Part shown: piece after piece, positions 11,444-40,166 of the stretch
Numbering within the stretch: position 1 is the first letter of the stretch
Layout of the letters: every line of letters starts with the position of its first letter
Assembly: GCA_016200265.1 (NCBI GenBank)
Contig: JACQFE010000012.1
Location: forward strand, 20,332-84,331
DNA from: Planctomycetota bacterium
GTDB taxonomy: Bacteria; Planctomycetota; Phycisphaerae; UBA1845
Direction of reading: 5' to 3'
Length of the DNA stretch: 64,000 nucleotides
The notes under the pieces: model-generated
Databases searched by the model: none
What the model was told of the DNA's origin: nothing
Seen by the model: only the letters and a program-made list of their open reading frames with translations
Position numbers and translations under genes: made by a program

Positions 11444-11501
11444 CCGGACAACCGCTATAATGCCGGGAGAGACACCCCGGCATTGTACGCGGATTTTCGG
11501 C

Positions 11502-12734
11502 ATGGCCAAGGCCCGACAACGCATTCCAAAGCTCAGATTCACGTCGTGGCGAAAGCTCGGCTGGCATGTTGCTTTTCGAGATGCGACGACGGGTTCGCCC
11601 CGCAAACACGTATTCAAAATTCGCGGTCGCGAGCGTGAAGCGGAGGCCCGGGTTCTCTACCATGCGTGGGTGCTTGAACACATTGGCGGTAACGGCAATC
11701 CGGCCCATCCGACCCAGGCCAAAGCGATAGGGCGACGAAAACCCTCAAACAATCTACTTTCGGGGAGCCTCCTGGAAATCGCAAGCGGGCTCATCGCTGT
11801 CGAGCGCGGAAGAGCACGTAAAGACGGTGAATCGCGGAGACGTGGCACGATTGACCGGCGTGTGTTTTCGGATCGGAAGAAACAAATCCGGGACTTCCTC
11901 GGGTTTCTGAACGAGCGTCACGGTGCAGGAGCTGTCTCCAAGATGCAGTTGGCCGACCTGGCGATGGATGATGTCGAGGCGTACAACCAATTCATCGCTG
12001 GAAAGGGATACTCCGCCTCGCAGGTGGCGAAACGCATCGGAGTTATCAAAGCGATCATCGACCGTGCCGGCAGGCCCGAGCATGGCGGGCAGGTTCTTGG
12101 GTGGAATTGGGACTCTCGTGATGTTGCCCACGGAGTTCCGACCGAGGAACGGGCGCTACCCAGTGTAAAGCAACTTCGGCGGCTTCTGCGAGCAACGGAT
12201 AATCGCGGACGCACCATGATCTGGCTGGGGATTGGACTTGGTCTAGGTGCGCGCGATATTGCTGCTATTCGTGTCGGGCAGATCGCGAGAGAATCATACG
12301 ACTTGCGAAGGGGCAAGACAGGCGTGGAACGGTATGGCGGAACTCCGCAGTTGGTATGGCTTTACGTTTCGAGGCTTCAGGCGGAGCGCAGGCGTGCAGC
12401 CGGTGAGCTCTTGTTCGTCACTCGGAACGGCTTACCAGTTGTTCACGGTGCATCAAACGCAGTAACGCAATGGTGGGAGAAGCTTCGCGAGCGGGTTGCG
12501 AAAAAGAACGAAGCGATTTGCAGCTTTTACACATTGAGACATCTCGGCGCAACGGAATTCGGTTGCCGCCCGAATACATCGATCAGTGATGTGAAGCGTT
12601 GGCTCGGCCACTCCGCGAGTTCGCGCATGGCGGATGTGTACATGCGGCCGGTGCGGCCGGAGTATCGCGAACTTGTTGAGTGGGTACGTCGCAAGCTCAA
12701 CACGAAGTTTGGGGGCGGGGAGCGAGGCCATTAA
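11502..12734 (+). CDS. Tyrosine recombinase / phage-type integrase
   Basis: C-terminal catalytic region ...FYTLRHLGATEF...WLGHSASSRMADVYMRP (R..H-x-x-R..Y pattern). Lies next to a tRNA gene. The longest ORF starts at 11460. Confidence 0.85.
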   Translation: MAKARQRIPKLRFTSWRKLGWHVAFRDATTGSPRKHVFKIRGREREAEARVLYHAWVLEHIGGNGNPAHPTQAKAIGRRKPSNNLLSGSLLEIASGLIAVERGRARKDGESRRRGTIDRRVFSDRKKQIRDFLGFLNERHGAGAVSKMQLADLAMDDVEAYNQFIAGKGYSASQVAKRIGVIKAIIDRAGRPEHGGQVLGWNWDSRDVAHGVPTEERALPSVKQLRRLLRATDNRGRTMIWLGIGLGLGARDIAAIRVGQIARESYDLRRGKTGVERYGGTPQLVWLYVSRLQAERRRAAGELLFVTRNGLPVVHGASNAVTQWWEKLRERVAKKNEAICSFYTLRHLGATEFGCRPNTSISDVKRWLGHSASSRMADVYMRPVRPEYRELVEWVRRKLNTKFGGGERGH

Positions 12735-14742: not shown

Positions 14743-17355
14743 TCAGCGCTCCAGGGCGATCTCCGCCTCGTTCTTTTGCCTCGCGAGGTCGACCGCGAGT
14801 TCTTTTGCCCGCGACTCGCTCATTTGGCGAGCAAGATTTGCAAGGCCGGGACCGGCCTCATGTTCATCAGTATAGAAGCGGGTTTGGCCCCTCGCCCGGG
14901 AGGCCTGGGTGTAGGATAACTCGCGGTGTTGCATGAATCCACCAAGAAGCACAAAGGCGTCTTCAACGGTCGTCCCCTGCCCCTTGTGGGTCGTAACCGC
15001 GTAGCCGAGCTTGACGTGGGGATAACTGTTGAGGGGAATGACTACGTCGCGACCGTCGTCAAGGGCGACGGTAATCGTGTTTCTCAATCGGCCCTTGCTA
15101 ACGACGGTTCCCAGGTCGCCGTTGTGAACTCCTAGCGGCCGTGAGTTCTTGTCTAAAAGGACGCGGTCGCCCTCGAAAATGTATCCATCGCGCAGGCGGA
15201 CGCAGTGGGCGGGGCTGAGTCGACCGGCACGCAGCCGCGCGTCCTGACATTGAAGGTTGAGTGCCTCGGTTTCGACATTGGTCCCGCAGAAAATAAGAGC
15301 GCGCTCTGAGTGATGTCCGTGCGCGTCAGCCCAGTCAGTGACCAGTCGATCCATCGCTTCGCTGCGGTCTTTCGCCACGGTGAGCAACCCGCGCTCTGCC
15401 AGATCCTTCAGGGCACCCTTGGCGTTACCTTTCGCAAGTTCCTGCACCAGCTTACGGTCCTTTTCCTCGCGTTGGCGAATGATCTTGGTGAGCTTGGCGG
15501 GTTCATGCCGGTCGGCCAAAGCCGCAAAAGGCGCTCCAGCTTCAATGGCTTGGAGTTGTTGTCGGTCGCCGACAAGGACAAGCTTCCCACCTCCTCTCCT
15601 AGTCGCGTCAACGAACCGTGCCATCTGCCGTGTGCCGACCATGTTGGCCTCATCGATGATCAGCACCGTCTTCTTGTCAATCTTGAGTTGCTTGAAACGA
15701 TAGGTGGGTTTACCCACCCCGGCGCGGAGCAGTTGAAGTAGGTGGTGACGAAGTTTCCACGCGAACGTTGGCTTCATGAGTAGTTCGATCGTCCGAAGGG
15801 TGCCAGAGCGGATTCCTGAGCCCTTCTGAAGTTCTCGGGCGGCCTTCGCCGCCAAGGCGCCGCCGATCACATGATATCCCGCCTTCTCGAAGATTTCGCG
15901 ACAGGCGGTCAAGGCGGCTGTTTTTCCGGAACCGGCCACACCGGCGAGAATGGCTAGACTGCCTCGCCGGGTGATATGGCGGACGGTTTGGGCTTGTTCG
16001 GCGGAGAGAACGATGTTCGCGTCGCGGCCGATGCGTGTTCGGTCGACGGGGCTCGTTCGGAGTCCTCGGGCGGCGCGAACGAATTGTCGCCCGTGGTGCT
16101 TCAGCTCCTCCATGAGCGGCGAGCGCGAGGCTTCGTAGCGCTTTAGCACGCCTTCTATCGAACGTGCACTGATGGCATGACTGCGTTTGTGGGACAGCTT
16201 GTTGGCCGAATCCAACAGACTCTTTTCCAGAGTCAGCATCTCGTGCGTCGTGTAGCGGGCCTCGTCGTTCTTTTCGCCGACGTGAACAAAGCGCGGTGAG
16301 GCAAGTGCGTCCGAGACGGCAGTGCGCAGGTCGGAGACGGAGGCCCCGAGAGTTTGCGAGAGCTCGGCTGTGCGGCGCAGGAGTTCACCTCTGGAGAAAT
16401 GGCTTTCTTGTTCAGTGATTTCGTTTGCCGCGCGTTGCACAAGATCCTTCAAGCAGGATGGGGCGGCAGTGTTCGGAGGCGTTGGGGTTAGCTGCTGGGG
16501 AGAGTAGCCGTGGGCGATGCCGACCTCCCGCCACTTTGCAAACAGTTCACTACGCGGTGGAACCAGCGTCTTCGGTTCTCTCGTGGCAAGGGCGGCGAAG
16601 GCCGCGGCACTGGCGCTCTCCATGCCGTGACTTCCAAGCAGGGCTTCGATCGTTTTTCGGCGCTTGGAAAACTCGTCGATCAGCGATTGGGAAACGCCTT
16701 TGACTTCGAACCAAGTTCGCTTCGGTTCGCATTCCAATCCGAGCACGGTTAAGCGTGTGGCGAGTCCCACGCGATACAAAGCCCCCGCCACCATCTTGTG
16801 CTTGTAGATTGGTTTGCTCAGGATGGTTCCGGTGGTCCCGTCGGGGCGAACGGCCGCGTTCATGACCAAACAGTGAGTGTGCGGTTGCGGGTCGAGGGCG
16901 CGGCTCGTTGCGTGTTCAAATGTGGCCACGATGAGCTTTGCGTGTTCCCGCCTCACCCCATCTTTGCCACGTCGGGAAAAAGCCACCTCGTCTTCAAGAT
17001 AAGCGAGCGCTTCCTTTACCGCGGCGAAGTGCGCGACTTGTATCGCACGGCGGGTGTTCTCGTCGCTTTGACTCCAAACGGTGCTCACGGACTTGGGCGC
17101 GGAGAACGTGAGATCCCAACCGGGCTGATGCCTTAGGCTCCCGGCGTTCTGAATGAGCAGCGCTCCATCAGGGGAGAATCCCGAAAAGATCTGCTCCAGG
17201 GCTGACCGCTCAACCCTTCCGCTCAGGCCAAGAGCCTCAGCCCCCTTCCCCCACCACTGTCCGGGAGGCTCGCCGCCGTTGAGGTAATAGTCCGCTTGGG
17301 CGAGTTCCAGGTAGTAGCGAACCTGCCCATGCCCCATCGCAGCAATAGAGAGCAT
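14743..17355 (-). CDS. MobF-family relaxase (TrwC/TraI-like) with C-terminal RecD/TraA-like helicase
   Basis: N-terminus MLSIAAMGHGQVRYYLELAQADYYLNGGEPPGQWWGKGAEALGLSG is TrwC-like. Histidine triad region ATSRALDPQPHTHCLVMNA. Helicase Walker A GVAGSGKT and VLIIDEANMV. Confidence 0.88.
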   Translation of the reverse strand: MLSIAAMGHGQVRYYLELAQADYYLNGGEPPGQWWGKGAEALGLSGRVERSALEQIFSGFSPDGALLIQNAGSLRHQPGWDLTFSAPKSVSTVWSQSDENTRRAIQVAHFAAVKEALAYLEDEVAFSRRGKDGVRREHAKLIVATFEHATSRALDPQPHTHCLVMNAAVRPDGTTGTILSKPIYKHKMVAGALYRVGLATRLTVLGLECEPKRTWFEVKGVSQSLIDEFSKRRKTIEALLGSHGMESASAAAFAALATREPKTLVPPRSELFAKWREVGIAHGYSPQQLTPTPPNTAAPSCLKDLVQRAANEITEQESHFSRGELLRRTAELSQTLGASVSDLRTAVSDALASPRFVHVGEKNDEARYTTHEMLTLEKSLLDSANKLSHKRSHAISARSIEGVLKRYEASRSPLMEELKHHGRQFVRAARGLRTSPVDRTRIGRDANIVLSAEQAQTVRHITRRGSLAILAGVAGSGKTAALTACREIFEKAGYHVIGGALAAKAARELQKGSGIRSGTLRTIELLMKPTFAWKLRHHLLQLLRAGVGKPTYRFKQLKIDKKTVLIIDEANMVGTRQMARFVDATRRGGGKLVLVGDRQQLQAIEAGAPFAALADRHEPAKLTKIIRQREEKDRKLVQELAKGNAKGALKDLAERGLLTVAKDRSEAMDRLVTDWADAHGHHSERALIFCGTNVETEALNLQCQDARLRAGRLSPAHCVRLRDGYIFEGDRVLLDKNSRPLGVHNGDLGTVVSKGRLRNTITVALDDGRDVVIPLNSYPHVKLGYAVTTHKGQGTTVEDAFVLLGGFMQHRELSYTQASRARGQTRFYTDEHEAGPGLANLARQMSESRAKELAVDLARQKNEAEIALER

Positions 17356-18360: not shown

Positions 18361-19077
18361 TCATGCCGCCTGGCGGAGCATGATGTTTTTCTTGAAGATG
18401 AGGCAATACTCGTGCTGGATGGGAACGTCTTCCATTGAAGCGTAAGTGACGTGGTCAGACCGGCAGTTGTGCTGGGCCTTGATGATGACCGAGCGAAGTT
18501 CGCCCAGCGGTCCCGCCATGTTCATGACCTCACGGGCGATGGGATAGTAACACCGGTTTCGTCGAACGTCGCCCATGAGCACGGCCATCCGCCCGCCTGG
18601 AAACACTGCGTCGTAGCATTGGCGGAGTGCAAGAAAGAGCGTGCCAATAAACTCGTCGAAGGTTTCGCAAGTGCTCAAGTCTGCGGCATCGTCGCTGTAT
18701 CGAATGATGTTCCAGTACGGCGGATGAACCCAGACCAAGTCAAATGGGCCGGGAAGTGGTTCGGCAACAACGTCGAAGCCCATGCGTAGGTCGCTTCCCC
18801 AGTACTCGATGCATGAGTTCTCACACCGATTCAATTCCGCTATCACATCCTTTGTAGTGCCGGAACCCATCATCGGGTCGGCGACTCGCCGGGGTCGGTA
18901 ACGGCGGATGAGGTCGCGAAACAAGGTTCCGTCGCAGTTCCCGCGATAACTTGCGTCGCCCCACGGGCCGCGAACGGGATAAGAAACAAGCGAGGTCATC
19001 TCGCGGTCCGGCAGCGGCTGCTTCACCGCTGGGACATCGGCGGGCTTCAAGAATGTTTGCTTTTGAGTGAGTTGCAT
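18361..19077 (-). CDS. Orphan DNA methyltransferase (N6-adenine/N4-cytosine type)
   Basis: Motif I-like VADPMMGSGTT, followed by motif IV DLVWVHPPYW ((D/N/S)PPY/F-type). GGAGGAAAT SD before ATG 19077; the longest ORF reaches 19278. No adjacent restriction gene. Confidence 0.75.
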   Translation of the reverse strand: MQLTQKQTFLKPADVPAVKQPLPDREMTSLVSYPVRGPWGDASYRGNCDGTLFRDLIRRYRPRRVADPMMGSGTTKDVIAELNRCENSCIEYWGSDLRMGFDVVAEPLPGPFDLVWVHPPYWNIIRYSDDAADLSTCETFDEFIGTLFLALRQCYDAVFPGGRMAVLMGDVRRNRCYYPIAREVMNMAGPLGELRSVIIKAQHNCRSDHVTYASMEDVPIQHEYCLIFKKNIMLRQAA

Positions 19078-19090
19078 AATTTCCTCCATG

Positions 19091-19127
19091 ATAAAAGGAG
19101 CCGGCCGAGCGTTGACCCGACCGGCTC
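19091..19127 (-). terminator. Intrinsic-terminator-like hairpin after 19133..19405
   Basis: Minus strand reads GAGCCGG-(16 nt)-CCGGCTC followed by CTTTTAT. Confidence 0.5.
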
Positions 19128-19132
19128 GCGAG

Positions 19133-19405
19133 TTAAACGGTGGCCTCTTGGTCGGTTGGACCAGCGGCATTCGGCTTGCTGCTCGAAGTTTCGAGCAACC
19201 AAGCGTGGATTTGTTCGAGCACCTTACAGAGAGTGGGAACGTCATTTCGGCCGAAGGAAGCACTTCGTTTCCAAGCATCTCCCTTCCGGTAGAGCCTGGA
19301 CACCGCCACGGTGCGGAAGCTTCCCTTGCTTGTCGCGTTCTCGAAGACCGAAGCTACGATGAGCCCCTCTCTGATTTGGTGTATAGGTTTCTTGTTGTTT
19401 TCCAT
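19133..19405 (-). CDS. Small conserved protein, paralog 2 of the 3-member family
   Basis: 90 aa with TAGGAGGAT SD. MENNKKPIHQIREGLIVASVFEN...VSRLYRKGDAWKRSASFGRNDV... Confidence 0.7.
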   Translation of the reverse strand: MENNKKPIHQIREGLIVASVFENATSKGSFRTVAVSRLYRKGDAWKRSASFGRNDVPTLCKVLEQIHAWLLETSSSKPNAAGPTDQEATV

Positions 19406-20607: not shown

Positions 20608-21507
20608 TCATCCGTTAGCAGTCATCGTAACCGGCTCGACGATGTGCGAGTCACCGACCTGTTCAAGTATGGCGTAGTTCGTCGGTTCCAGTACGCCAGC
20701 CAAGAATGCCCCTCGATTGCGAACTCGGTGTTCAAGTTCGAGCGAGAGCCGGAGATACTGTTGGGCGACCGGAATGGTCTGGAACCGAGGAAATTGGAAC
20801 AGGGTTCTCCCCTTCCCCGATGCCTCCGGAAGAACCACTGCCTGCGAGATTGTGTTTTCAAACCGCCGACCGGGCAATGCTTGGTTGACAACGGTCTCAA
20901 GTTGGCCCCGGAGCCGGGTTGCACGGCCGTCTACATTGGTGAACACCACGCCGAGGATTTCCAACGCTGGGTTGCGGTGTCTTCGAACGTCGGCAATGTC
21001 ATTGAAGGCTTCGGTCAAGCCACCCAGAGAAAGGGGATGCGGGAACGCGGAAAGAAGAAACCACTCGGCCGTCGAATAGGCGGCGACTGTGGTGATGAAA
21101 CCGGCAGACGGTCCGGTATCAAGAAACACGAAATCGTATCTTAATCGAGCTTCCGCAACCGGCCGCTCAAGGACACGCGTGCGGTCGAGGTACTTTGATA
21201 ACAGAACGTCGATTTCGCCGAGCTGCGGTCTTGACGGGATGAGGTGTACGCCGGGCGGCATGTCGTCGACGATGGTGAGGTTTTCGATTGCCTCATCGGT
21301 GGTAAGAAGCTCCAACGTGCCCGCGTAGCTCTTGGTCGGTACGCCGAGGTGTTTGGTAGCCCCGGCGGCGGGGTCAAGGTCCATGACGAGGCACCGACTT
21401 CCGCGTTGTCCAAGTGCGGCCGCGATATGAACGCAGTTGGTTGTCTTCCCCACGCCGCCCTTCTGATTACCAACCGCGATGACCGTACCAAGTTCGTTCT
21501 CTTCCAT
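20608..21507 (-). CDS. ParA-family partition ATPase of the element
   Basis: VIAVGNQKGGVGKTTNCVHIAAAL (deviant Walker A), LVMDLDPAAGAT, FVFLDTGPS. Start taken at MEENELG (21507); the longest ORF reaches 21588. Confidence 0.85.
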   Translation of the reverse strand: MEENELGTVIAVGNQKGGVGKTTNCVHIAAALGQRGSRCLVMDLDPAAGATKHLGVPTKSYAGTLELLTTDEAIENLTIVDDMPPGVHLIPSRPQLGEIDVLLSKYLDRTRVLERPVAEARLRYDFVFLDTGPSAGFITTVAAYSTAEWFLLSAFPHPLSLGGLTEAFNDIADVRRHRNPALEILGVVFTNVDGRATRLRGQLETVVNQALPGRRFENTISQAVVLPEASGKGRTLFQFPRFQTIPVAQQYLRLSLELEHRVRNRGAFLAGVLEPTNYAILEQVGDSHIVEPVTMTANG

Positions 21508-22091
21508 TCGCTCCGTTAAAAATCTAATGCATGCCCGCGTGCCCGTTGTCGGGGAGGCTCGCCGGCGTGGATGCCGGCGATGCCGCAACCCCTACGACTC
21601 TTGGATACGACACCCGACGAAAACTGGCAACAGGTTTCTTGCGGGCGGCATCGAACCGAACAAGCGTAGCGATGCGGTCGGAGGAGAACGACGGTGCCTG
21701 TGAGTGCCATGACTATGGCATTCCGGCATGCCCGCATGCCGCGTCGCCTGAAAAAACAGGACTTGTCCGACCGAAAGCCGCGTGCGATGACTAGAATCGA
21801 CGCGACGTCAGAATGGATTCGTTGCGGCTGCTGTCAAAAACTTGAGAAGGGTCATGTTGCCATGATTTAGAATTGTTGAGCTGGACATAGAGCGACGGTT
21901 CAGGTCGCTCCATGTCGTGAATGAGTAAGCCCTCTCGGATTCGCGATGAATGAATCCCGTAGTTTCCTTCTAGCGTAATTCCGAGCATGTCGTCAAGCTC
22001 GTTTTGAGCGGCGGGGGCTTTGTCATCTCAACACCACGTGGCGATTGGTCTTTCCGGAACGGGCCCGCGATGCCCGGAAAAGGAGAGAGGG

Positions 22092-23546
22092 GTGAGGGAG
22101 ATACGAAACAAGCCGGAAGGCGGGTATTGCATTGTTGCGGCGTTCGAGGTCGCGTGGATTTTATGTACGTACAAAGCGGGGTTCATTCGCTGGTACGATG
22201 TCCGGGTATGGTTTGCGTGCAAAGAGGCGGCGGCGAGACGTTGCGGGCTCCGCAACGGCCGCTCCGCAAAGTACCGCGTGGAGGAGATTTGCAGCTTGGT
22301 CGGCGGGGTGAACGGCGGATGTGTCCGCGCGGCCCTGCGACGCCTGGAAGCCACGGGGCTTTTTCGGTTTGGGGAGACTGCGATTCGTTTCGCAACTTCA
22401 CCCGATGAGCTTCGAATCGGAGACTTGTCCGGCTTCTGGTCAATGGTCCACGCCATTGGGCAGAAGAACCGAAAAGTTCCGATTCCTCGGCGAATCGTCC
22501 GGTACATCGCGGGCGGAATGCGAAAGACGCTCGCGGGCACCTTACTTGGGCACGTGCTTCGGTGCTGCTATTTGAACGGGGCGGAGTATTTGTCGGAAGG
22601 CTCGTGCTCGGCGTCCTGGGTCGCTCGTGTCTTTGACCTCGATGAGCGGCACGTCAAGCGAGCGAGAAAGCATCTTGCCGAAATCGGTTTACTCTCGGCG
22701 GTAGAGTCCGATTCGTGGCACCGCAAAAAATATGGGGCGAGGTTCGCGGTCTCTCCGACGTGGTCCGATTCGGTCGAGCAACCGCGAGAGCGAATCGTCA
22801 AACGGCCACCTCGAAGTGAGCTTTCCACAAACAAACGGCCACCCCTCTTGATTCTTAAAGAGAACTCCTTCGGAATTGGAAACCAGAAACCCGCATTGGC
22901 CGCGGACCGGCCAACTGGTGTTTGCACGCAAAGGGGTGCGAGCGCCGAATCGCCGACGATGCGGCATGTGACCACGGATGATATCCGGGACACGCGGCGG
23001 TTGGTCGGAGCGGGTGGGTTGTTTGATGACGCCGTGCGGCGAGGGCTCGTCAACCGTTGTGAGGCCGACCGGCTCAAGTTTGTGGCCGCGGCGGAACGGG
23101 CTGTCCGCGAAGCGACGCGAAACCCGGGCGGGTTCTTCGTGCGGTTGGTTCGTGCCAAACTGTGGCACTACATCACGCTGGAGCAGGAAGACGCGGCTCG
23201 GCGGCGGCTTCGGCGAGTTGCGGAAGAGGATGGCCGGACCGTGGAACGATGTCGAGGGTCGATTGGACCGCCGTGGAGCGACGAATTAGCGCACGCTTGC
23301 CGCGATGCTGGACATCCTGATGAGCAGCGACGAGTGGGTGGGGAGCTGGAGGTTGTTCGCGAGTTGATTGCACGGTCGTTGGCGTTGGCGGCAGAGGTTC
23401 AGTCGATTCAGAGCGTTGACCGAGAGACCGGACACGGAGTGGAACGGTCGGTGCAGGGCGTGGAATCGTGGGAGCTGGGCCTCAACCAGCGAGGTCGGCA
23501 AGGTCGGGGTCAACACTCCGCTTGCTGGGAGCGGAGGGTTGCGTGA
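22092..23546 (+). CDS. Hypothetical protein with two winged-helix-like segments (possible replication/maintenance initiator)
   Basis: GGAGAGAGG SD before GTG 22092. Segments ...CVRAALRRLEATGLFRF... and ...VKRARKHLAEIGLLSAVE... look like winged-helix recognition helices. Divergent from parA. No named family recognised. Confidence 0.4.
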   Translation: MREIRNKPEGGYCIVAAFEVAWILCTYKAGFIRWYDVRVWFACKEAAARRCGLRNGRSAKYRVEEICSLVGGVNGGCVRAALRRLEATGLFRFGETAIRFATSPDELRIGDLSGFWSMVHAIGQKNRKVPIPRRIVRYIAGGMRKTLAGTLLGHVLRCCYLNGAEYLSEGSCSASWVARVFDLDERHVKRARKHLAEIGLLSAVESDSWHRKKYGARFAVSPTWSDSVEQPRERIVKRPPRSELSTNKRPPLLILKENSFGIGNQKPALAADRPTGVCTQRGASAESPTMRHVTTDDIRDTRRLVGAGGLFDDAVRRGLVNRCEADRLKFVAAAERAVREATRNPGGFFVRLVRAKLWHYITLEQEDAARRRLRRVAEEDGRTVERCRGSIGPPWSDELAHACRDAGHPDEQRRVGGELEVVRELIARSLALAAEVQSIQSVDRETGHGVERSVQGVESWELGLNQRGRQGRGQHSACWERRVA

Positions 23547-23853
23547 GCCGCTTCTCTTCCCAAAGGAGCACGTCCGAAAGGCGAGCGTATCGAATTCGTC
23601 CTCGGCGTTCGTGGGGTAGCTCGCCGGATTCCATCGCCGCAATGACGGTTTCCTTCCGCATTCGTTGCATCTTTCGAATTTGGTCGACTGAAAGCCAGCG
23701 TGCGAAAGCCGGTTCCGGCGGAGCGTGGGGCCTGATGGGAAGGTGCTCGTGTCCGTCAAAGAAAACTATGTCCAGGGAGTTGTCCGTTCCGATGGGTTGG
23801 TCCGCAGCCAACGTCAGACTGTTGCGTGGCGTGATTCGTTCGAATGATGTCAT
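23482..23853 (-). CDS. Excisionase/MerR-type helix-turn-helix DNA-binding protein
   Basis: WLSVDQIRKMQRMRKETVIAAMESGELPHERRGRIRYARLSDVLLWEE fits the Xis/AlpA-like HTH_17 pattern. Confidence 0.55.
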   Translation of the reverse strand: MTSFERITPRNSLTLAADQPIGTDNSLDIVFFDGHEHLPIRPHAPPEPAFARWLSVDQIRKMQRMRKETVIAAMESGELPHERRGRIRYARLSDVLLWEEKRLTQPSAPSKRSVDPDLADLAG

Positions 23854-24136
23854 AGCGTCCTCCGTAAGTCGTAATAAACGCCGACCACAAGGTCACGCCG
23901 TGAGCGAGCGGTCAAGGAGGAACGCGAAGCGGCAAATCCTTGACGGCGGAAGCTCCGGCGTGATTCGATGGGTTGACGTATGCGACAGTCGGAGGACGCA
24001 ACGTTTCGGGTGTAGACCAACTCAGACACGGGCTCATTCTGATTGGAAATTGGCGGACGAAGACAGATTGCCGGTGTGCAAAGTAATTGCAGACTCAAAC
24101 TGCACCGACGGAATCGAAAACGAATGCAACGGGTAC

Positions 24137-24286
24137 ATGGACCTTGCGACCAAACCGGTCGCCTGTCCAACCGAACGGATTCCGGCCATGTCGGAATGGG
24201 GAATGGTCTTCGTGACACTGTTGACGCTTACCTCCAGTACGCTGCTGTGCCTGCGTCGCGGCAACGCCGCGGGAGGGGAAAGCTAG
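24137..24286 (+). CDS. Candidate mini-ORF that is little more than an IPTL-CTERM-like sorting signal
   Basis: MDLATKPVACPTERIPAMSEWGMVFVTLLTLTSSTLLCLRRGNAAGGES*. IPAMSEWG + TM + RR matches the IPTLSEWG-type signal also seen at 42829..43794. No clear SD, and the start could lie upstream (a Cys-rich stretch CKVIADSNCTDGIENEC is in frame). Confidence 0.35.
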   Translation: MDLATKPVACPTERIPAMSEWGMVFVTLLTLTSSTLLCLRRGNAAGGES

Positions 24287-24538
24287 GGGAGGGGAGGTTT
24301 GGAACCGGGCGTGCGGGGTTCCAAGCCATGCCCGGCCAGCCGCCCCAGGCGGGTGGCCGGTTCCCCCAAGAAATCCTTTCGAGCGAGCGTCGACGGGTCG
24401 GGGTCCCGACGACGAGAGCGAACCTTCCCTCACAGGTGACACGTCGCTTTCGCTCCTTGCGGCATGAACCGATGGGCCGCTCTATTCAGGAACGCTTCGC
24501 AAGTGTCAAACGCCGTTACGTTTTTATTCAAACAACAG

Positions 24539-24568
24539 TTGATTTTTGGGGTCGAGTTGCGCTATCCT
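24539..24568 (+). promoter_or_regulatory. Sigma70-like promoter candidate
   Basis: TTGATT (24539-24544), 18 nt spacer, TATCCT (24563-24568), in a locally AT-rich patch just upstream of the structured segment. Confidence 0.35.
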
Positions 24569-24574
24569 AGCCTC

Positions 24575-25710
24575 GTGAAACATTGTTTCACGGTCGTCAG
24601 ATTCGTAAACGCGAATCGTTTGACGTTCATCATCACGGGCTTCGGTGCTCGGTAAATCCAGGTTCACCACCTGGACTAAGAGGGCGGTCTTATCAGCTGC
24701 CATGCCGAAGGCCCGTAGCGCCGGATGCCGCGAGAGCGGCTCGTCCGGTGCGAGGGAGGCTCCAGAGAGTAATCCCGTATTCGGAGTAATCCTCTGGTTC
24801 TATCCCATGTGTTGTGCCACATCGTGACACCTTTCTTTGAGTCTGGGCGACCGGGAAAGACCCGCCCATGGGGCGGGCCGCGGTAGTCGAACGGGTGAAG
24901 TCCGACGTTGTCGGACGTAATCCCTCCGTGGGGTTCGGGGCAAAGCCTTCGGGCAATTCGGGTGTAAGTCTCGGAAGCCTCGTTCAACACCGGCCAGCGT
25001 GGGGAGTTCGTCCCTCGTGAGGGGAACGACCGCATGAAGACAACATGCGGCGATTTCCGTGAAACGCGGAAACGATGAAAAGCTCAACCATGAAAGGCCC
25101 GTCAAGGGCTTGCTGGTCAGTTCAATCGGAGACGGTGCCGAAACGCGTTAGAAAGACCTTCGCCGAGCGGTAAGCCGAGCTTCTGTTTTCGTAGGCAGAA
25201 ATCGTCCCGATGCGTCGGGATGGAGAGTGCGCTCCGCCGGAAGGCGGAGCGACACGGCGATGCGAGTCAAGGGACTCTTGGTCAAGCGACGTGACCGATT
25301 GGATGACGACTAACGATAACCGGGGAAAGACTGCGGCGGCCGGGGTGATAGCCGGTGCCTGAGTGTGTCACTCAGGTGCTTCAAATGCCGTAGTCCGGGA
25401 GCGGGGCCCAAGTAGGAGTTCGCGGGAGCGGAGCGGAACCGCTGCAAGGCAGTAGCGGTTCCGTGTGGTGCTGACGGGTGGTGCCGGGCACGAGAACACC
25501 GACGAAAGGGCTGACGGGCATTTTTCTTGACCCGTGATGATGACGTGCTGGCTGGGGAGGGATCCCGACTTTTCGGGATTCCCTCCCCTCGCTTGTTTCC
25601 TGGGAAGGAATTGATTCAGCGGGCGAAAGAGGTCTCGCCGGGAGGCGAGGCGTCTTTTGTCGGTGGAATGACGACGGACAGTCGAGGTGTACCTCGCGTC
25701 CGTCGGAGGT
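24575..25710 (+). ncRNA. Large hairpin-dense non-coding segment: candidate structured RNA / long leader (family not recognised)
   Basis: No protein-like ORF in any frame. More than 15 local stem-loops, including 24574-24592, 24900-24916, 25205-25220, 25230-25251 (GGAA loop), 25358-25376, 25434-25463, 25554-25588 and 25672-25705. GNRA and UUCG loops read correctly only on the + strand. Confidence 0.4.
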
Positions 25711-25854
25711 TTGGGGTTCGCAACGGCCATGAATTGGCGTGCGGCTATTCCAAGAGAAAGCAGCACGCGTGCGGCGTTGCGGACGAAGGTAATGGGTGAA
25801 GGGAATGGTTGGGTGATGCGGAGGTTCGTGCGTGCACGAAGGAGGTGATGGCGT

Positions 25855-26064
25855 GTGGTTTGGTGGAATGGTGTCGATGGCCGCATGATCTGCGAGGCCG
25901 CGGTGGAGTACATCGCGGATCTCGAACGCATGGGCCAGGTGTTCGTGACGCCAGCGGACTTTCCTTGGCATGTGCGGGAAAAGCTGGAGACGTACTACCT
26001 GGGCGGCATCGGCCGTAAGCCAACGGACGAGGAACTCTTGGAACTCCTCGCGTTCGACCGGTGA
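25855..26064 (+). CDS. Hypothetical small protein (69 aa)
   Basis: AGGAGG at 25840-25845, GTG at 25855, strong G/C third-position bias. ...AAVEYIADLERMGQVFVTPADFPWHVREKLETYYLGGIGRKPTDEELLELLAFDR. No family recognised. Confidence 0.55.
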   Translation: MVWWNGVDGRMICEAAVEYIADLERMGQVFVTPADFPWHVREKLETYYLGGIGRKPTDEELLELLAFDR

Positions 26065-26156
26065 GCGTATTGTTAGAGGTTGGTCGTGCACCAACAAGGT
26101 TTTGATGATGGCTTTGGGGATTGTGCCGAGAAACAATCCCATCATTTGGAGGGGAG

Positions 26157-26876
26157 ATGGTTCGATGTGAGGCGGTATCGGTCGAAGGCTTCGTGCAGCA
26201 ACTTGCGGTGGCGTATGTTCAGCACGGCCATTGGTTCTACGTAACCGGCGAAGTGCCTAAACGGAAGGACCCGCGTGCAGTCGATGCGAAACTCATCGAG
26301 CTGTACGGCCTAGGCCTTTCCAAGTGGGCGAGAGCACGGAGCAAGGGAGCGGGGTGGGCGAGCGTTCGGTACATTCGTCACGGCGTGTTCTTCGTGCTTA
26401 TCGCGACGAAGGGGCGGCATGTGTTTTACGAACGTGAGCCGGGCATCCGCGACATTCGCCGCCATCCGATTTACTACGCGGGATACAGCATCTCATATCG
26501 GCGAGGAGTGGACCGGAAGTGGCATGTTTCAGTTCGGATTGCGGCGAACGAATACCTTCGACTCAAAGCGTATATGGTGGGACTTGCTGCCCGTCGTTCG
26601 GTTGAGAAACTCGCGGTTGAATTCGGCGAGGTGCCATTCGAGCCGTACGCACCGGTCCGCCGGCAGCTTCTTAACATTCTTCGAGCGGTGAATCGGGTGC
26701 GGCACGCGGCGGGGTTTGAATTGGTGCCGGTGTCGGCGTTACGGTTTCGCCGGCGGGTGGTGAAGCCGTTTAGCTGCCCGGAAGGCGATGGAGGAGCTGT
26801 GGCCCTGCGTGTTGGCGGCGAGTACATTGGGGACATTGATGATGTTAACGAGACGATTCGAAGGGAATGTGCATGA
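26157..26876 (+). CDS. Hypothetical basic protein (239 aa)
   Basis: GGAGG 4 nt before ATG 26157. Coding-like composition (VEGFVQQLAVAYVQHGHWFYVTG...VRYIRHGVFFVLIATKG...PFEPYAPVRRQLLNILRAVNRVR). No family recognised. Its stop overlaps the next start (ATGA). Confidence 0.6.
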   Translation: MVRCEAVSVEGFVQQLAVAYVQHGHWFYVTGEVPKRKDPRAVDAKLIELYGLGLSKWARARSKGAGWASVRYIRHGVFFVLIATKGRHVFYEREPGIRDIRRHPIYYAGYSISYRRGVDRKWHVSVRIAANEYLRLKAYMVGLAARRSVEKLAVEFGEVPFEPYAPVRRQLLNILRAVNRVRHAAGFELVPVSALRFRRRVVKPFSCPEGDGGAVALRVGGEYIGDIDDVNETIRRECA

Positions 26877-27133
26877 GTCCACGTCGGGCCGGCGATAAGA
26901 AAACGCGATTCACATTGTGGCTGCGCGAAGACCAATTGGAGGAGGTCGAAGAATTGCAGCGTGAGCTTGGCAAGGAGTCGCTCGCGGAAGTGGTGCGAGA
27001 CGCGTTGGATGTATACCGCTCGCTCCTGAAAGCTCGCGAAAATGGGATACGGCTCTATTTCGAGGATAGCAAGGCCAAGGAAAAGGGCCGTATCTGGTTG
27101 CTCCCAGGGCCTCCGCCGGTCGGTCGGCGGTGA
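26873..27133 (+). CDS. Ribbon-helix-helix (CopG/Arc-like) protein
   Basis: KKTRFTLWLREDQLEEVEELQRELGKESLAEVVRDALDVY follows the beta-strand/helix/helix RHH pattern. Translationally coupled to the upstream ORF. Confidence 0.6.
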   Translation: MSPRRAGDKKTRFTLWLREDQLEEVEELQRELGKESLAEVVRDALDVYRSLLKARENGIRLYFEDSKAKEKGRIWLLPGPPPVGRR

Positions 27134-29062: not shown

Positions 29063-29536
29063 CTACAACGGTTTTGGTCGGAAGAGTTCGTGCAAGAATG
29101 CAACCGGGTCGAGTATCTTGAGTTTCGGGAATCGCTGGATGAATTCGCGTCCTTCGGGAGTTTCGGGTTTCATGAGGTCGAGAAGGTCGCGGTCCGTAGT
29201 GACCAAGTAAGGTGCTTCCGCTGCTAGAGCGAGGTTCACGTATTTGCTGTCCTTCGGGTCGCGTTGGAGCGTGTAGACCTCGGCGACATTCGGGAACCAT
29301 TTCACGGCGCGCAGATAGCGAGCGAGGAAGGCATCCACGGCCTTGGGCGTGAGGGCGGGGAACTTCGTGTGGTGCTCCGGGCGGTTGAGTACGTCGTGGA
29401 TCTCGGCGAGCACGTCGGGACTCATGCAGAGCGTGACGCGAGCTTCTTCAACCAGGCGAAACGTAGCGTACGTACGTTGCGGGCGAGCGGCTGCTCGAAA
29501 AAATAGCATGCAATCGAAGACGGCGAGCGTGCTCAC
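29063..29536 (-). CDS. PIN-domain toxin (TIGR00305-like)
   Basis: N-terminal LAVFDC... and C-terminal DPKDSKYVNLALAAEAPYLVTTDRDLLDL. GTG 29536 overlaps the antitoxin stop (GTGA). Confidence 0.75.
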   Translation of the reverse strand: MSTLAVFDCMLFFRAAARPQRTYATFRLVEEARVTLCMSPDVLAEIHDVLNRPEHHTKFPALTPKAVDAFLARYLRAVKWFPNVAEVYTLQRDPKDSKYVNLALAAEAPYLVTTDRDLLDLMKPETPEGREFIQRFPKLKILDPVAFLHELFRPKPL

Positions 29537-29796
29537 GCGGACTTGGCCCGCTTGGCCTGGTGTTCGTCCCAAACCTTATCGCGAAGGCCTTCGTAGAAGT
29601 CGTCGAGCTTGTCGTCCATCATGCCGCTGTCGTCTACCTGCTTACGGAAGGGGGCAAGTAGTTCGTCCACGCTGGGAGTTGTGAGTGCGTCGTCGAGAAC
29701 CCGTGCGGCGTAGGACGTGATGTCCTCACCGGCGGCTTGCGCTCGTTCGCGAAGTTTCGCTTCGGCATCGGGCGAGAGCGGTACGCTGATGCTCAT
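29533..29796 (-). CDS. RHH-type antitoxin
   Basis: 87 aa. MSISVPLSPDAEAKLRERAQAAGEDITSYAARVLDDAL. Directly upstream of and overlapping the PIN gene. Confidence 0.65.
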   Translation of the reverse strand: MSISVPLSPDAEAKLRERAQAAGEDITSYAARVLDDALTTPSVDELLAPFRKQVDDSGMMDDKLDDFYEGLRDKVWDEHQAKRAKSA

Positions 29797-30035: not shown

Positions 30036-31763
30036 CTACCCTATCGAAGCAGCAGCGGTCGAAACCTCCTCCTCGTCCTCCACCAAAGGCGGTTCCATGT
30101 CGGCCGTTTCTGGATGGGGCCGGTCCGTGGTCGAAGCGTCATCGCGTAAAGATGCCCAAGACTTCGGTTCGGGAATCGCGTTCTTCGCATCGGCCTCGAT
30201 CGTGGCGTAATCAACGCCGAGGATTTCACACATACGCTTGGCGTCCGTGGCCTGAGCCGGTGCCTGTTCGTTGGTTATGGCGTTCAGCCGCTTGATCCAG
30301 ACTTGCGCGACTGCGAACAAGGCAGCGGCGGCCGGCTCTCCTGATGCCGAGTTACGCAGCGAATCGTACTGAGTCCACGCTTCACCGTTATCCAGAAAAT
30401 CAGCCCGGTGCATGGCGCCGAACGTGACAAGCAAGGCGACGAGGTCGAAAACCACAGTTCCCTCGGCCTTGTTATTGCGACGCTGAATCCACGGAGAGAC
30501 GATTTCCTGGGCCTTTTCAGGGGTAAGCTCACGCAAGTACGTCTGCACGTGCTTCACAACATAAGCGTCGCGCCGCTTCTGGAGGCGGGCGCGCCGTTCG
30601 ATCAGCGTCATCGGGACAACGTTGCCGCCCTCGTCGCGCGGCCTGCCTTTCCCACTCCCATTATGCGAAACGGTGGAATCTTCAGAGGCCACGTAAATGA
30701 GCTTCCCGGCCTTGGGCCCATCGACCTGCATGGCCGGTTCGCTTCCCGGTTTGTGCGGCTTCACGGGCTTGGCGCCGTAAAGACGGTCCAGGCGATTCCC
30801 GAATACTTCACTGACGGCGGAACTGAGGCTGCCGACTCCGAGATGAACGAGCCGAAGCGTTGGATGCTCTGCTCGAAGCGCGCACTCGCAACGCTGAACG
30901 AAAGCCACGTGCTTTCGGTCGAAGCACTGCGGGTCAAGGCAACGGTCGTTTTTTGAGAGCTTTCCGTTCCCCGCCGACTCCGCCTCTGCGAACAGCATCG
31001 GCTGTTTGGACGACCGCTTCTCGCAGTTGAGGCAAGCGCCAGCTTTTGGGACGATGGTTTCGTCTTTGGGATCCCAGGGCATGGCCCCGAGCGACCGAAG
31101 ACCATCGTCGATGATGCGGCGCAGTTCGTCGACCGTGGGAAACCCTCTGCCAAACACGGCCATGAAGTTGTCCTCGGATAGAGCGGTCTGGGTTGGTTCC
31201 GGCAACCGGGCGATGAGTTCAAGATGTGCCGCCGAAAAACGGCTGACCTCGGAATCGGGCTTACGGATTTCGCTCTTCCAAGCGGGAGTAAGACGAGTTA
31301 GCGACGCCCGCCTTGCAAGATAGGGTATGCTTTTCCCGAGCTTCGCCGCGATGGTGTTCAAGTCAAAGTCACGCTCGAAGGCAAGTTGAATCGTTTCCGC
31401 TTCCTCCAGCGGATGAAGGTTCCTTCGCTGTATGTTCTCGGCAATAGTCACACTCAGCGCTTCCTCGTCATCAAGGCGACGGACGATCGCGGGAATGGCG
31501 GTCAGTCCGGCAAGCTTCGCGGCGCGCCAGCGCCGCTCGCCTGCCCTGATTTCCCAGTGTCCAGGCTCGGTTGCATGGACGCGGACGACGATGGGCTGCA
31601 AAAGCCCGTCTTTCTTGATGGAATGGGAAAGGGATCGGAGCGACGTATCGCTGATACCCCTGCGGCGGTTGTCAGGCGTCGGTATGATTTTGTCGACTGG
31701 CAACATTTGAATACGGTCCTTGGTCGCCGCTTTTTCCTTCTTTCTTCTCTGTGTGCGTGGCAT
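30036..31763 (-). CDS. ParB/Srx-fold N-terminal domain protein with long C-terminal extension and a Cys4 cluster
   Basis: LPVDKIIPTPDNRRR..., LLQPIVVR, IRAGERRWRAAKLAGLTAIPAIVRRLDDEEALSVTIAENIQRRNLHPLEEA (ParB box motifs). Later CLNCEKR...CLDPQC. AGGAG SD 8 nt before ATG 31763. Confidence 0.75.
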   Translation of the reverse strand: MPRTQRRKKEKAATKDRIQMLPVDKIIPTPDNRRRGISDTSLRSLSHSIKKDGLLQPIVVRVHATEPGHWEIRAGERRWRAAKLAGLTAIPAIVRRLDDEEALSVTIAENIQRRNLHPLEEAETIQLAFERDFDLNTIAAKLGKSIPYLARRASLTRLTPAWKSEIRKPDSEVSRFSAAHLELIARLPEPTQTALSEDNFMAVFGRGFPTVDELRRIIDDGLRSLGAMPWDPKDETIVPKAGACLNCEKRSSKQPMLFAEAESAGNGKLSKNDRCLDPQCFDRKHVAFVQRCECALRAEHPTLRLVHLGVGSLSSAVSEVFGNRLDRLYGAKPVKPHKPGSEPAMQVDGPKAGKLIYVASEDSTVSHNGSGKGRPRDEGGNVVPMTLIERRARLQKRRDAYVVKHVQTYLRELTPEKAQEIVSPWIQRRNNKAEGTVVFDLVALLVTFGAMHRADFLDNGEAWTQYDSLRNSASGEPAAAALFAVAQVWIKRLNAITNEQAPAQATDAKRMCEILGVDYATIEADAKNAIPEPKSWASLRDDASTTDRPHPETADMEPPLVEDEEEVSTAAASIG

Positions 31764-32076
31764 TGGATTGACTCCTAACACGAGGGAACAGCGAAACCTC
31801 GCTCAGCCACACGGCCGAGATGGCGAAGTTCCGACTGACGAGGCTTGTATGGAATGGACTCCGTGTTCGCGGTTGGTGGCGTTTAAGCAAGAAAACCTTC
31901 ATCACCTACGACATGGCGGCATAGAGGACCCTGCGGGCCTTCACGCGGCCATACCGAATCGTCTGCTCAACGTGATGAGAAAAAGAACGAAGTGTGCCAT
32001 GATTATGGCACATATGGTGTTCTCAAATCAAGCCTGAGACGTGCGAGGTTGAAACGGGACCGCGGGCGGCGCCCAC

Positions 32077-32658: not shown

Positions 32659-35600
32659 CTAACGGGTGTACTCCGAGCTGCCGGGCGCTTCCGTCACCGT
32701 CAAATCTCGGACTGGCTTCCGGTGGGCCAATAGAAGCGGCAGCACGGCGGTCGCATCCTCCAGCACGACGAACCAACGTCGCTTGTGGCTAATGATCTCC
32801 TCGCAAATTCCGCAACCGCGAAGTTCTTCGCGATTGGCCGGAACGCCATTGAGAATGAGTTCCGCCACGTCGTCGCCCGCAATGCGTGCGGCTGTAAGTC
32901 GCCAGCCGTTGTCCAATTCGATCACCGCGCCGCCGCTCAAGAGGTCGAGGATCTCCGCTGGAGTCGCTTCGCCAAGCGGCGTACCTATGCCGAGGCGCTG
33001 CTTGACGTTCGGCACGTCGGACGGACTCAGATTCAAGCCGACCAGGGCCTGTCCGCCAGAGAGAACCGCCCGTGCGATTTTTACGGTTTGGATGCCGGAG
33101 GATCCCATGACTTTGTCGTAGATCGGAAAGATCGCTCCGCTGAGGATGTGAAAGCGACGCGGCTCGGTCGGGGGCGTGTTGGCGTACTCGGCTTCCCACC
33201 ACTTTCGGGCTTGCACGACATCGACGCGCTCGTACTTACCGTCCAGTTCGTGACGCTCCAGCGCTCTACGCGGGCCTTTGACTCCCGTCAAAAACACTTC
33301 GTTGCGATTTGCTTCCCAGTGATCCGAGACAGCGTAGATTCGTTCGCTGCGTTGATTGCGATGAAAGCCGTGGGTTGCGGATGCGGCCGCCGCGTCGAAA
33401 GTGTGTCTGACGACATCGACCTCGCCTTCCAGTTCATGGATCATGGTGCGCGCGCCGGAGGCCGAATCCACGAATAGCGTTTGCGGTTCGGTAATTCTTC
33501 GCAGATTGCGGGCGCGAATTTCCTCCACGCCGAAATCGAAGGCCCCGTTTTGCTTGGCCGCCTCGACGACCTCCAGATAAAGCTCATAGAAGATCTCGAA
33601 GACGCGATTCTGCTTCTCGACATGCAGCACCATGATGCGATTGAGGAACTGTTCGACGTTGCTGGCGTAGTTTTCTCGCACGGCGGTTTTTTCTTTGTTC
33701 AGCACCCCCATCCGGTCCAAGTCACGAAGGCCGATTCCTGCGTCCGCGCGTTGGCCCGCCTCGACCTGCCGGTAGAGCTTGGCTAGCGCTGCTTTTCCGT
33801 AATAGTCGGTCACGTCTTCCGGTCGAAAGAGGTCGCTGGAGAGCGAATGCCGCTCTCCTTTGGTCAGCGCGCCCAGTGCTGCGAGTCGTCTGGAGACGGC
33901 GTTCACGAGCCGCTTCTGGCCGGCCACGTCGAGCAGCACCAGCCGGATCACCGGGGCCGAAGTCTGATTGGAACGATGCACGCGGCCAAAGGCCTGCATC
34001 TGCTGGTCGGCCGACCAGGAAAGCTGAAAGGCGTAGAAGACGCGGCGCTGCTGATTCTGTGCGTCCACGTCAGCGTGAACGCTGATTCCCATGGAGCCCG
34101 CCCCGGAGATAATCGCCAGCCGTTTCCTACCCGCCTGAAACTGCCGCGTCTCGTACTCATTGAGTTGACGACGCGGCACGCCTCGAATCTTGCGACGAAC
34201 ATACTTGCCGTTCTCGAAACGGTGCGTGCGGCCGCTGATTTCGGCCACACTCCAAATACCGAAGCGGGCAATCAGCGCATCCATCGGGTTTTGCGGAAAG
34301 TCCAGGTCGGCGACTCTGCTGAGGAGTTTTTGCTGCCGACGTTGGTTCTCGCGATTGATTTCCGGGTTGCCGGCGGCGTCTTCGACGCGAACGGTGATGA
34401 CGTTCCCGGTCACCGGGTCGGTCTGTTCGCGATACTGATATAACGGAAATTGCGTCTCGATGAGTTGCACGATCATTTCTCGCGGCGTGGCGTCGAGTTC
34501 GGAGAGCTCGATGCCTTGTGCTCGTGCGTCGCGCACCTTGCGGTCGGCCTGGGCCTCGCCGGTGTTGAACAGGCTCAAGACCACTGACCGTCCCTGGGAA
34601 AGATCCCTTTGAATTTCAGGAATGACGTCCGGCAGTGTGTAGGCCATCATGAGTTGCAGAAAGAATCGCTGTTGGGCGGAGTAAAACTGGGCGTACCGAT
34701 GGGCGTTTCGCTTCTGCCCCGCGTCGTGCTCAGCCGATTCGAAGGCCACCAGAAGCTCCGACCAGAGGTCCGCGATTTCGTCATACTGTCGCCGCTCCGC
34801 ATCGGACACACGGTGTAGAAGCGGTTCATATTCGACGGCGCTCTCGGGCACGACGCTTCCATCCGGCAAGCGTGTCGGGCCGTAGCTGATGGTGCGGGAT
34901 AAATAAGTGCCCACGCTCTTCAGGTCGCGGCAGAGCATTTCCATGGCCGCGACCCCTCCGCGTTCCATGGCCATGAGGAACGCCGAAAAATCTGGAAACG
35001 GCGCTCCTGCGCCCCAAAGGCCTAACCGTTCGTAGGGCGCCATGTGCCGGGCTTCGGTAGCTCCGGTGGCGCTGAAGTAGCGGACGCGGGCCCGCGGGAA
35101 TAGGCGTTGAAGGGCGATGCCCATGTTTCCGCGAAGGGTTCCCTCGTCCACGGTGGCCTTTCCACCATGAGGTGCCGCGGCCGCGTTCTTCATCAAGTGC
35201 GCTTCGTCAAAGGCGATGACTCCGTCAAAGTCTGGGCCAAGCCAATCGGTTAGCTGCTTGAATCGTGCTCGCTCGCCATCGAAATCTTTGCTCATCATGG
35301 TGTACGTGGTGAAGAGAATCCCCGATTCCACGAATATGGCATCGGTGGGCTTGAATCGGGCTTGATGAACGATGGGAAGCGGCACGCCGACCGCGTCGCG
35401 GTCGCGCTCCGCATCGGCGTGGAGCTGGTGGGATGCGGACAGGTGCACGTGCTTCTGGCGACCCTGCTCAAGCTCATTGTAAATGAAGGCGTAGATCTCC
35501 CTGCCCTTGCCGATGCCGGTGCCGTCGCCATTCCAATGGCCCTTTCGCGAACCATCGGGCAGAAGCATGCTCGTCGCCTGGCCGGCGTAGATCACGTCTT

Positions 35601-40145: not shown

Positions 40146-40166
40146 AATCATTTCTCCTATAAATAA

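Follow-up and report, generated by a model that had tools for sequence, protein, structure and literature searches.

Positions 24,575 to about 25,710 of the 64-kb stretch of Planctomycetota DNA analysed here (contig JACQFE010000012.1; the whole stretch is called the window below) raise the question of what a mobile element carries in a region that is densely filled with hairpins and holds no recognizable protein gene. We conclude that the plus strand of this segment very probably encodes a circularly permuted (CP) group II ribozyme, which belongs to a rare class of self-splicing RNAs described by Roth, Weinberg, Vanderschuren, Murdock and Breaker (iScience 2021; PMC8637638). In the published class the helices and domains (D) follow each other in the order P1-P2-D5-D6-linker-D1-D2-D3-D4, the splice sites, NU and GGGCG, stand in reverse order, and back-splicing yields an RNA circle of 15-86 nt together with a branched RNA (PMC8637638). 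Members from C. testosteroni, T. thermophilus and others have been tested biochemically (PMC8637638), and the Cte 1 member of C. testosteroni has been the subject of cryo-EM work (bioRxiv 10.64898/2025.12.30.696962). AcpG, a protein of unknown function, is often encoded near these RNAs, which may have any orientation relative to acpG or occur without it (PMC8637638).

A first-pass annotation of this DNA had described the segment as free of open reading frames (ORFs) and had proposed that it encodes a large structured non-coding RNA on the plus strand, and both statements hold. All ORFs of at least 40 aa in 24300-25850 are short, overlapping and rich in R, P, S and G, none of them is protein-like, and a Pfam search with seven frames of this region gave no significant match (best E 0.045). 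The stretch 24711-25520 has on the plus strand a minimum free energy of -384 kcal/mol (z = -5.5 against dinucleotide shuffles) and on the minus strand one of -321 kcal/mol, and many conserved G-U pairs in its helices are valid only in plus strand RNA, which makes the plus strand the functional one. The annotation had also proposed to collect homologues and to examine covariation. We aligned 42 non-redundant homologous sequences, to which all pairing, covariation and conservation figures given below refer, and computed an RNAalifold consensus on the columns of the window. Standard pairs are formed in 92.8% of the cells of the 291 predicted pairs, compared with 71.6% after shuffling and 35-40% when the partners are slid against each other, and the covariation score is 0.589, compared with 0.198 and about 0.09, respectively. 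Compensatory changes are present at 237 of the 291 pairs, and the insertions and deletions among homologues, which can be of any length, are located at hairpin tips. The segment from 24540 to 25710 is a highly structured plus strand RNA gene without a credible ORF. All hairpins listed in the first-pass annotation are found in the sequence and eight of them are conserved with compensatory changes, whereas those at 24900-24916 and 25554-25588 fall in variable insertion sites. Similarly, of the two alternative pairings that it gave for the block CCGCCC near 24862, the downstream one is kept (24861-24866 with 24872-24877, 99% paired), but the upstream partner GGGCG turned out to be the predicted 5' splice site.

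The identity of the RNA was indicated by Rfam, which the first-pass annotation had suggested searching with attention to group II introns and several other families. We scanned the whole window against Rfam 15 and rescanned 23000-27000 permissively, to E 10. Only two matches in the window lie above threshold, a tRNA and the group II D5-D6 model RF00029, which matches at 24716-24808 (+) with 47.4 bits (gathering score 40, E 2e-7). Within 23000-27000 no other group II model, including the group-II-D1D4 families, gave a match even at E 10, and with this single RF00029 match the D1-D3 part has no D5-D6 downstream of it. A match of the small RNA BTnc231 at 25520-25657 was dismissed as chance (26 bits against a gathering score of 80). 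D5-D6 is normally the terminal part of a group II intron. At this locus there is nothing intron-like or reverse transcriptase (RT)-like upstream of it and 900 nt of structured RNA downstream, and no RT or maturase domain was found inside or beside the RNA or among those large ORFs of the window that the scan covered. An ordinary intron that begins at GTGCG 24310 was considered and rejected; this upstream stretch is not conserved as RNA, holds the promoter-like site and has no D1 features.

The 5' half of the RNA holds the parts that in group II introns are catalytic. Much of D5 is invariant and its helices (12-13) are 98-100% paired; the triad is AGC in 38 of the 42 homologues, and in the window it is CGC, with the A-U pair replaced by a compensating C-G pair. 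The D6 helices (14-15) are 99-100% paired and covary. The branch-point A24802 and the AU of the 3' splice site (A24807 and U24808) are invariant, as are G24845, G24846, C24848, G24849 and A24850 of the 5' splice-site block on the other side of the linker. The linker itself varies from 14 to 101 nt among the homologues, while both its flanks are invariant. This 5' block matches UGGGCGACnnGGAAA(C/G) of the published CP alignment, and later sequence blocks beyond UGGGCGACnnGGAAA are also common to the published CP sequences. A 5' splice site at GTGCG 25228, which would give a 419-nt circle, was rejected since both the GGGCG consensus and the alignment place the site at 24845.

The 3' half consists of D1, D2 and D3, so that the order of domains is permuted. 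The D1 helices (17-34) are 83-100% paired, with compensatory changes in most of them. Exon-binding site 1 (EBS1) comprises the six nucleotides after GCUUCU in a D1 loop, and its partner, intron-binding site 1 (IBS1), the last six nucleotides of the linker, GA followed by four variable bases. Across the alignment 195 EBS1-IBS1 pairs are observed, compared with 164 +/- 5.6 when partners are shuffled, and none of 5000 shuffles reached the observed number; EBS1 and IBS1 covary. The terminal loop of D3, GCAAGGCAGU at about 25444-25453, is nearly invariant. In the published class a D3 loop forms a pseudoknot with D1 (PMC8637638), and a conserved complementary partner for GCAAGGCAGU was looked for and none was found. 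The loop of the P2 hairpin, UUCACCA, is complementary to the D2 loop GGUGAUA (25344-50), and at least four Watson-Crick pairs are possible in 34 of the 42 sequences, which makes these loops a candidate kissing interaction; a P2-D2 pseudoknot belongs to the features of the CP class. A different P2-D2 pseudoknot, GCUGCC (24696-701) with GGCAGU (25449-54), was rejected; its first strand varies freely and its second is nearly invariant.

The sequences before D5 and after D3 pair with each other through three tail helices, which together amount to an 'opened D4' helix and close the permuted molecule. Since they join the sequence before D5 to that after D3, which is the place of D4 in an ordinary intron, they fit a permutation that opened D4. 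Within the 5' tail, helices 6, 8 and 10 are 90-96% paired, and in the 3' tail helices 47-48 are 90-96% paired with all 17 of 17 pairs covarying. Upstream of P1 lies the -35/-10 candidate of the first-pass annotation. It is not called by a strict sigma-70 consensus scan, but an arrangement TGAYT ... TATnnT is kept at a constant distance from P1 in many homologous loci, and the transcript probably starts near 24575. At the other end the terminal hairpin, followed by a G/U-rich run, is probably a terminator, which would place the 3' end of the RNA near 25712. For UGACGAC (25669-75) there are two possible pairings, one with 24593-99 and one inside the terminal hairpin, and these are mutually exclusive; this alternative could couple folding of the ribozyme to termination or read-through.

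Table 1. Features of the ribozyme locus and of the surrounding element (positions in the window; percentages are paired cells among the 42 homologues)
Feature	Position	Strand	Details
Promoter-like element	24539-24568	+	-35 TTGATT 24539-44, 18-nt spacer, -10 TATCCT 24563-68
P1 hairpin	24574-24592	+	CGUGAAAC-AUU-GUUUCACG; 89%; all 5 counted pairs compensatory
5' tail	24593-24716	+	pairs with 3' tail; three-way branch with P2 hairpin 24657-24675 (loop UUCACCA) and hairpin 24683-24701
Hairpin in P2	24659-24675	 	96%
Tail helices 2-3	24593-99/25669-75	 	85-88%
Tail helix 4	24623-38/25532-46	 	14/14 pairs compensatory
Tail helix 11	24711-16/25514-19	 	100%; 4/6 pairs compensatory
D5	24718-24751	+	9-bp lower helix, CGC triad, UC bulge, 5-bp upper helix, GAGA tetraloop
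D6	24754-24806	+	bulged branch-point A24802, 7 nt before 3' end
3' splice site	24807-08	+	AU
Linker (joined-exon equivalent)	24809-24844	+	36 nt; hairpin 24809-24830; IBS1 GAGUCU 24839-44
5' splice-site block	24845-51	+	GGGCGAC; GGGCG 24845-49 within block GGGCGACCGGGAAAG
D1	24851-25323	+	closing stem CCGG/CCGG, 24851-54 with 25320-23
Hairpin within D1	25008-25029	 	97%
Hairpin within D1	25030-25050	 	99%
EBS1	25185-90	+	GUUUUC in loop of hairpin ~25174-25195
Hairpin within D1	25205-25220	 	93%
Hairpin within D1	25230-25251	 	90%
D2	25328-25396	+	outer stem and two hairpins; helices 35-37, 93-99%, covarying
Hairpin within D2	25358-25376	 	99%
J2/3	25397-25403	+	GGGAGCG, purine-rich; GGGAG 25397-401 invariant
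D3	25404-25513	+	AAGUAG internal loop at base; helices 38-44, 89-98%
Hairpin within D3	25434-25463	 	89-95%
3' tail	25514-25712	+	strands pairing with 5' tail; variable hairpin 25554-88; conserved long hairpin 25622-61
Terminal hairpin	25672-25705	+	then G/U-rich run, consensus GGUUUUU (31 tails)
AcpG-like gene	26157 (ATG) to 26876 (stop)	+	239 aa; Shine-Dalgarno sequence 26148-56
tRNA	11324-11395	-	Rfam 15
TrwB/TraG coupling protein	12731-14740	 	 
TrwC relaxase	14743-17355	 	 
DNA methylase	18361-19278	 	 
ParA	20608-21588	 	 
PIN protein	29063-29572	 	 
ParB-N protein	30036-31781	 	 
Strawberry-notch-like helicase	32659-37254	 	 
ArdC-N protein	39297-40313	 	 

By analogy with the tested members, we propose that a single transcript from the promoter-like site would carry D5 and D6 on its 5' side and D1-D3 on its 3' side, and that pairing of the two tails would close the molecule at the position that D4 has in an ordinary intron. 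The 5' splice site, guided by the pairing of EBS1 with the linker end, would be attacked at U24844/G24845 by the 2'-OH of A24802, and the freed 3'-OH of U24844 would in a second step attack the 3' splice site after U24808. The products of such a back-splicing reaction would be a covalently closed RNA circle of 36 nt (24809-24844) and a T-shaped RNA, in which the D5-D6 piece would be linked 2'-5' to the D1-D3 piece.

The RNA is not confined to this contig. Scanning one genome per species with the protein family encoded downstream gave 80 loci, and an nhmmer search of these loci with the RNA of the window found the 1.2 kb RNA unit in about 70 of them (E 1e-189 to 1e-28). Enough flank, 1500 nt or more, is available for 68 loci, and in 65 of these the unit lies upstream of the protein gene and on the same strand. 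Other neighbours of the gene in the window are not conserved across the loci, and RNA and protein also occur together outside mobilizable elements; the two are kept where other neighbours are not and so form a two-part module. Most of the 80 loci are from Planctomycetota, with single metagenome-assembled genomes (MAGs) named Ignavibacteriales, Verrucomicrobiota, Polyangiales, Hyphomicrobium, Thermoleophilia and others. The same module is found on plasmid5 of Calothrix sp. NIES-4101 (AP018278.1, 3500-5290; RNA E 4e-62, protein hhalign 99.3%), a mobilizable (MOBF) cyanobacterial plasmid on which the RNA region carries no annotation, and which was the sole match when 72,556 plasmids were searched with the RNA by blastn. 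A second, truncated copy of the RNA, from D5 to mid-D1, lies 2 kb upstream on this plasmid (1349-1705). No supplement of PMC8637638 contains the word stem 'planctomyc', and we regard these sequences as a large, previously unlisted clade of the known CP group II class that is centred on Planctomycetota.

In several genomes the module is present two or three times (loci L004/L012, L006/L016, L017/L043 and L074/L076/L080). One contig (SBAX01000204.1, L004/L012) carries two copies with identical match statistics, which lie in opposite orientation about 17 kb apart. These multiple copies suggest that the DNA with which the module travels is repeated or mobile.

The protein partner starts about 450 nt downstream of the predicted 3' end of the RNA. 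The 239-aa product is identical to the hypothetical protein HY287_03525 of a Planctomycetes MAG. It fits no Pfam or NCBIfam family, and the protein collection contains 2193 relatives, all of them without a Pfam domain. When the family was compared by hhalign with published AcpG sequences (Data S3), it scored 93.2% and 95.5% (the latter with E 1.5e-8 over about 168 columns), while pairwise BLASTP between the window protein and published AcpG was not significant. Judged by this profile comparison, the protein is a distant homologue of AcpG (TTHC007-type). The AcpG-like family comprises 1640 cluster representatives at E <= 1e-3, with 55-78% identity within the branch.

Two further observations concern the spacer in front of this gene. 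A hairpin just before the Shine-Dalgarno sequence (26117-24/26133-40, GGGAUUGU ... ACAAUCCC) is conserved in sequence and structure, with the consensus UUGUGCC...AAACAA, and could serve as a translational operator or bind a protein. The spacer that separates the RNA from the AcpG-like gene also holds a 69-aa ORF with its own Shine-Dalgarno sequence (25855-26064); only 11 of the 80 loci have it (median identity 43%), and in most loci it is missing and the spacer is about 200 nt shorter.

How firmly the clade can be tied to the published RNAs depends on the kind of comparison. A profile of the 42 sequences gave three colinear weak matches to the published sequence SRS063288 (E 7e-4, 0.03 and 0.03). 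One runs from the end of D6 across the linker into the 5' splice site, another covers the EBS1 hairpin, and the third covers J2/3 and the D3 base; in this last region the published sequence aligns as AGACUGGGAGAGUG..GAGUAGGA. On T. thermophilus pTT8 the same profile gave a weak match (E 0.011) at 5840-5740 (-). This site falls in the gap without genes next to TTHC007, where the published CP RNA is located. An Rfam 15 scan of pTT8 gave no group II match, which indicates that Rfam 15 holds no CP model. On these comparisons the link through the protein AcpG is firmer than that through the RNA sequence.

Several points weigh against our assignment. Sequence-only searches between the clade and the published alignment are weak: an nhmmer profile of four published sequences found no match in the window, and a covariance model of the D2 region found none on pTT8. 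The D5 of the window is canonical-like, with a paired triad and an RF00029 match, whereas the D5 of the Thermus CP RNA has no Rfam match, and the clade may therefore have arisen by an independent permutation event. The window's own EBS1 and IBS1 form just four of six pairs, and the P2-D2 loop contact displays no covariation beyond conservation, both loops being too conserved to show any. Finally, the transcript ends, the splicing and the circle are all things that we infer by analogy.

These points have to be set against what other explanations would require. Group II intron fragments are common in bacteria, and since D5-D6 score as canonical here and a second, partial copy is present on the Calothrix plasmid, one could think of a dead remnant, in which the 3' end of an ordinary intron (D5-D6) came to lie by chance beside the 5' part (D1-D3) of another copy without any function as a unit. 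We consider this very improbable, because the permuted unit recurs with identical boundaries, promoter-like site and tails in about 70 loci of several phyla, its catalytic nucleotides are invariant, its 5' and 3' tails covary (helices 4 and 11) and EBS1 covaries with the linker end. The first-pass annotation had offered a long regulatory leader as one reading, and in its present form this would be a cis-acting leader of the AcpG-like gene whose folding or self-processing sets termination at 25672-25705 against read-through. Such a function would agree with the position of the RNA, which in 65 of 68 loci precedes the gene in a fixed orientation, with the two pairings open to 25669-75 and with the conserved hairpin just before the Shine-Dalgarno sequence. 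However, it leaves the invariant group II catalytic core unaccounted for, as a leader has no need for an intact active site, a branch-point A and splice sites, and among published CP members the orientation to acpG varies freely and acpG may be missing (PMC8637638). As the identity of the RNA a leader is improbable, but it may be a secondary role, and leader function could be added to that of a CP group II ribozyme rather than replace it.

The remaining explanations have hardly any weight. That the segment acts as single-stranded DNA in the leading region of a mobile element, as a promoter or an ssi primosome site, had been suggested in the first-pass annotation. The segment does lie in a mobilizable element with relaxase, coupling protein, ParB, Strawberry-notch-like helicase and ArdC, and both strands fold better than shuffles. 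We found no support for this suggestion and give it next to no credence: the conserved G-U pairs are valid only in plus strand RNA, Rfam matches a group II model, and only the RNA and the protein travel together, also outside such elements. Just as remote is a decayed protein-coding gene, for which one could point to the long shadow ORFs of the minus strand (25381-26145, 254 aa, and 25368-25931), but the seven frames lack a significant Pfam match, substitutions in the stems are compensatory and not codon-like, and indels of any length occur at hairpin tips. The suggestion of a new large non-coding RNA, which was also made in the first-pass annotation, gives way to membership of the class published by Roth and colleagues.

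For the AcpG-like protein AlphaFold gave a confident model (pLDDT 87, pTM 0.80), which had no significant structural match in Foldseek. The top neighbours in the PDB, all weak, are RTs (retron Eco8, a group II intron RT, G2L4 and other retrons; E >= 5.5e-3, probability <= 0.69, TM <= 0.33), and the viral library gave weak matches to RNA-dependent RNA polymerases. Neither PDB sequences nor Pfam gave an RT match for the protein, and hhalign of the family against the LtrA family reached 0.5%; the best local stretch, below significance, is the RT-7 'FLGY' hairpin (protein residues 94-117). These fold comparisons leave room for the doubtful idea that the protein may be a reduced, catalytically dead descendant of a group II RT/maturase, consisting of palm and thumb, which would still be a folding or splicing partner of the permuted ribozyme. 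If this descent were true, the module could be seen as a domesticated group II ribonucleoprotein that serves some end of the plasmids and integrative elements on which it is carried, for example by making a small circular or branched RNA that controls expression of the module or acts against competing DNA.

The module of the window travels as cargo in an integrated mobilizable element, which starts at the tRNA gene and whose identified genes lie within 11324-40313. No type IV secretion genes were seen in the element, and the ORF at 11460-12734 beside the tRNA, in the place where an integrase would be expected, gave no Pfam match.

CP group II RNAs are among the few large natural classes of ribozymes without a known biological role, and they are under development as tools for making circular RNA. 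The findings presented here make the class much wider than the published set, by a large Planctomycetota-centred clade and a cyanobacterial plasmid member, at loci that Rfam alone would annotate merely as a stray 'D5-D6' match. The many diverse sequences of the clade are strong covariation data for modelling, and a strictly ordered pair of ribozyme and distant AcpG relative makes the link between RNA and protein directly testable.

Compared with the published CP ribozymes, the RNA of the window has the same domain order, P1-P2-D5-D6-linker-D1-D2-D3-tail, the same NU and GGGCG splice-site consensus around a short, variable, hairpin-bearing linker, an EBS1 in a D1 loop that pairs with the linker end, a purine-rich J2/3 and a D3 internal loop, and no intron-encoded protein. 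Both groups are carried on chromosomes and plasmids with an AcpG-type gene nearby. The clade differs from the published set in its size (about 1.1 kb compared with about 0.9 kb), in its taxa, mostly Planctomycetota, whose name stem the published supplements lack, with the Calothrix (Cyanobacteriota) plasmid and single MAGs, and in a D5 with a paired triad that is matched by RF00029, which that of the published pTT8 member is not. Furthermore, the P2 and D2 loops are UCACCA/UGGUGA in the clade and UUGCCA/UGGCAA in the published set, and the tails form long 5'-3' helices, whereas in the published model D4 is a local hairpin and the P1 loop forms a pseudoknot with the 3' end. The protein published as AcpG is similar in length to that of the window, is likewise encoded adjacent to the RNA and likewise belongs to no Pfam or NCBIfam family. 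The protein of the clade, by contrast, forms a large and very conserved branch that BLASTP does not connect with AcpG, and its gene lies consistently downstream on the same strand, whereas the link to acpG is loose in the published set.

With canonical group II introns the RNA shares the sequence and structure of D5 and D6, a branch-point A that precedes the 3' splice site by 7 nt, and a D1 with EBS1, J2/3 and D3. Canonical introns begin with GUGYG and end with AY, run in the order D1-D6 and usually hold an RT ORF in D4, whereas the RNA of the window has GGGCG, the permuted order and both splice sites in its interior, and lacks an RT or maturase ORF. Since its splice sites are reversed inside the RNA, splicing, unlike that of canonical introns, can neither ligate the exons on its two sides nor release a mobile lariat. 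The closest precedent for its logic is the engineered permuted group II introns (Jarrell 1993; PMC8637638), in which D5-D6 placed before D1-D3 leads to back-splicing and circular 'exons'. Those are laboratory constructs with inserted exons, whereas the RNA described here is natural, has a tiny non-coding linker and is accompanied by a conserved protein partner.

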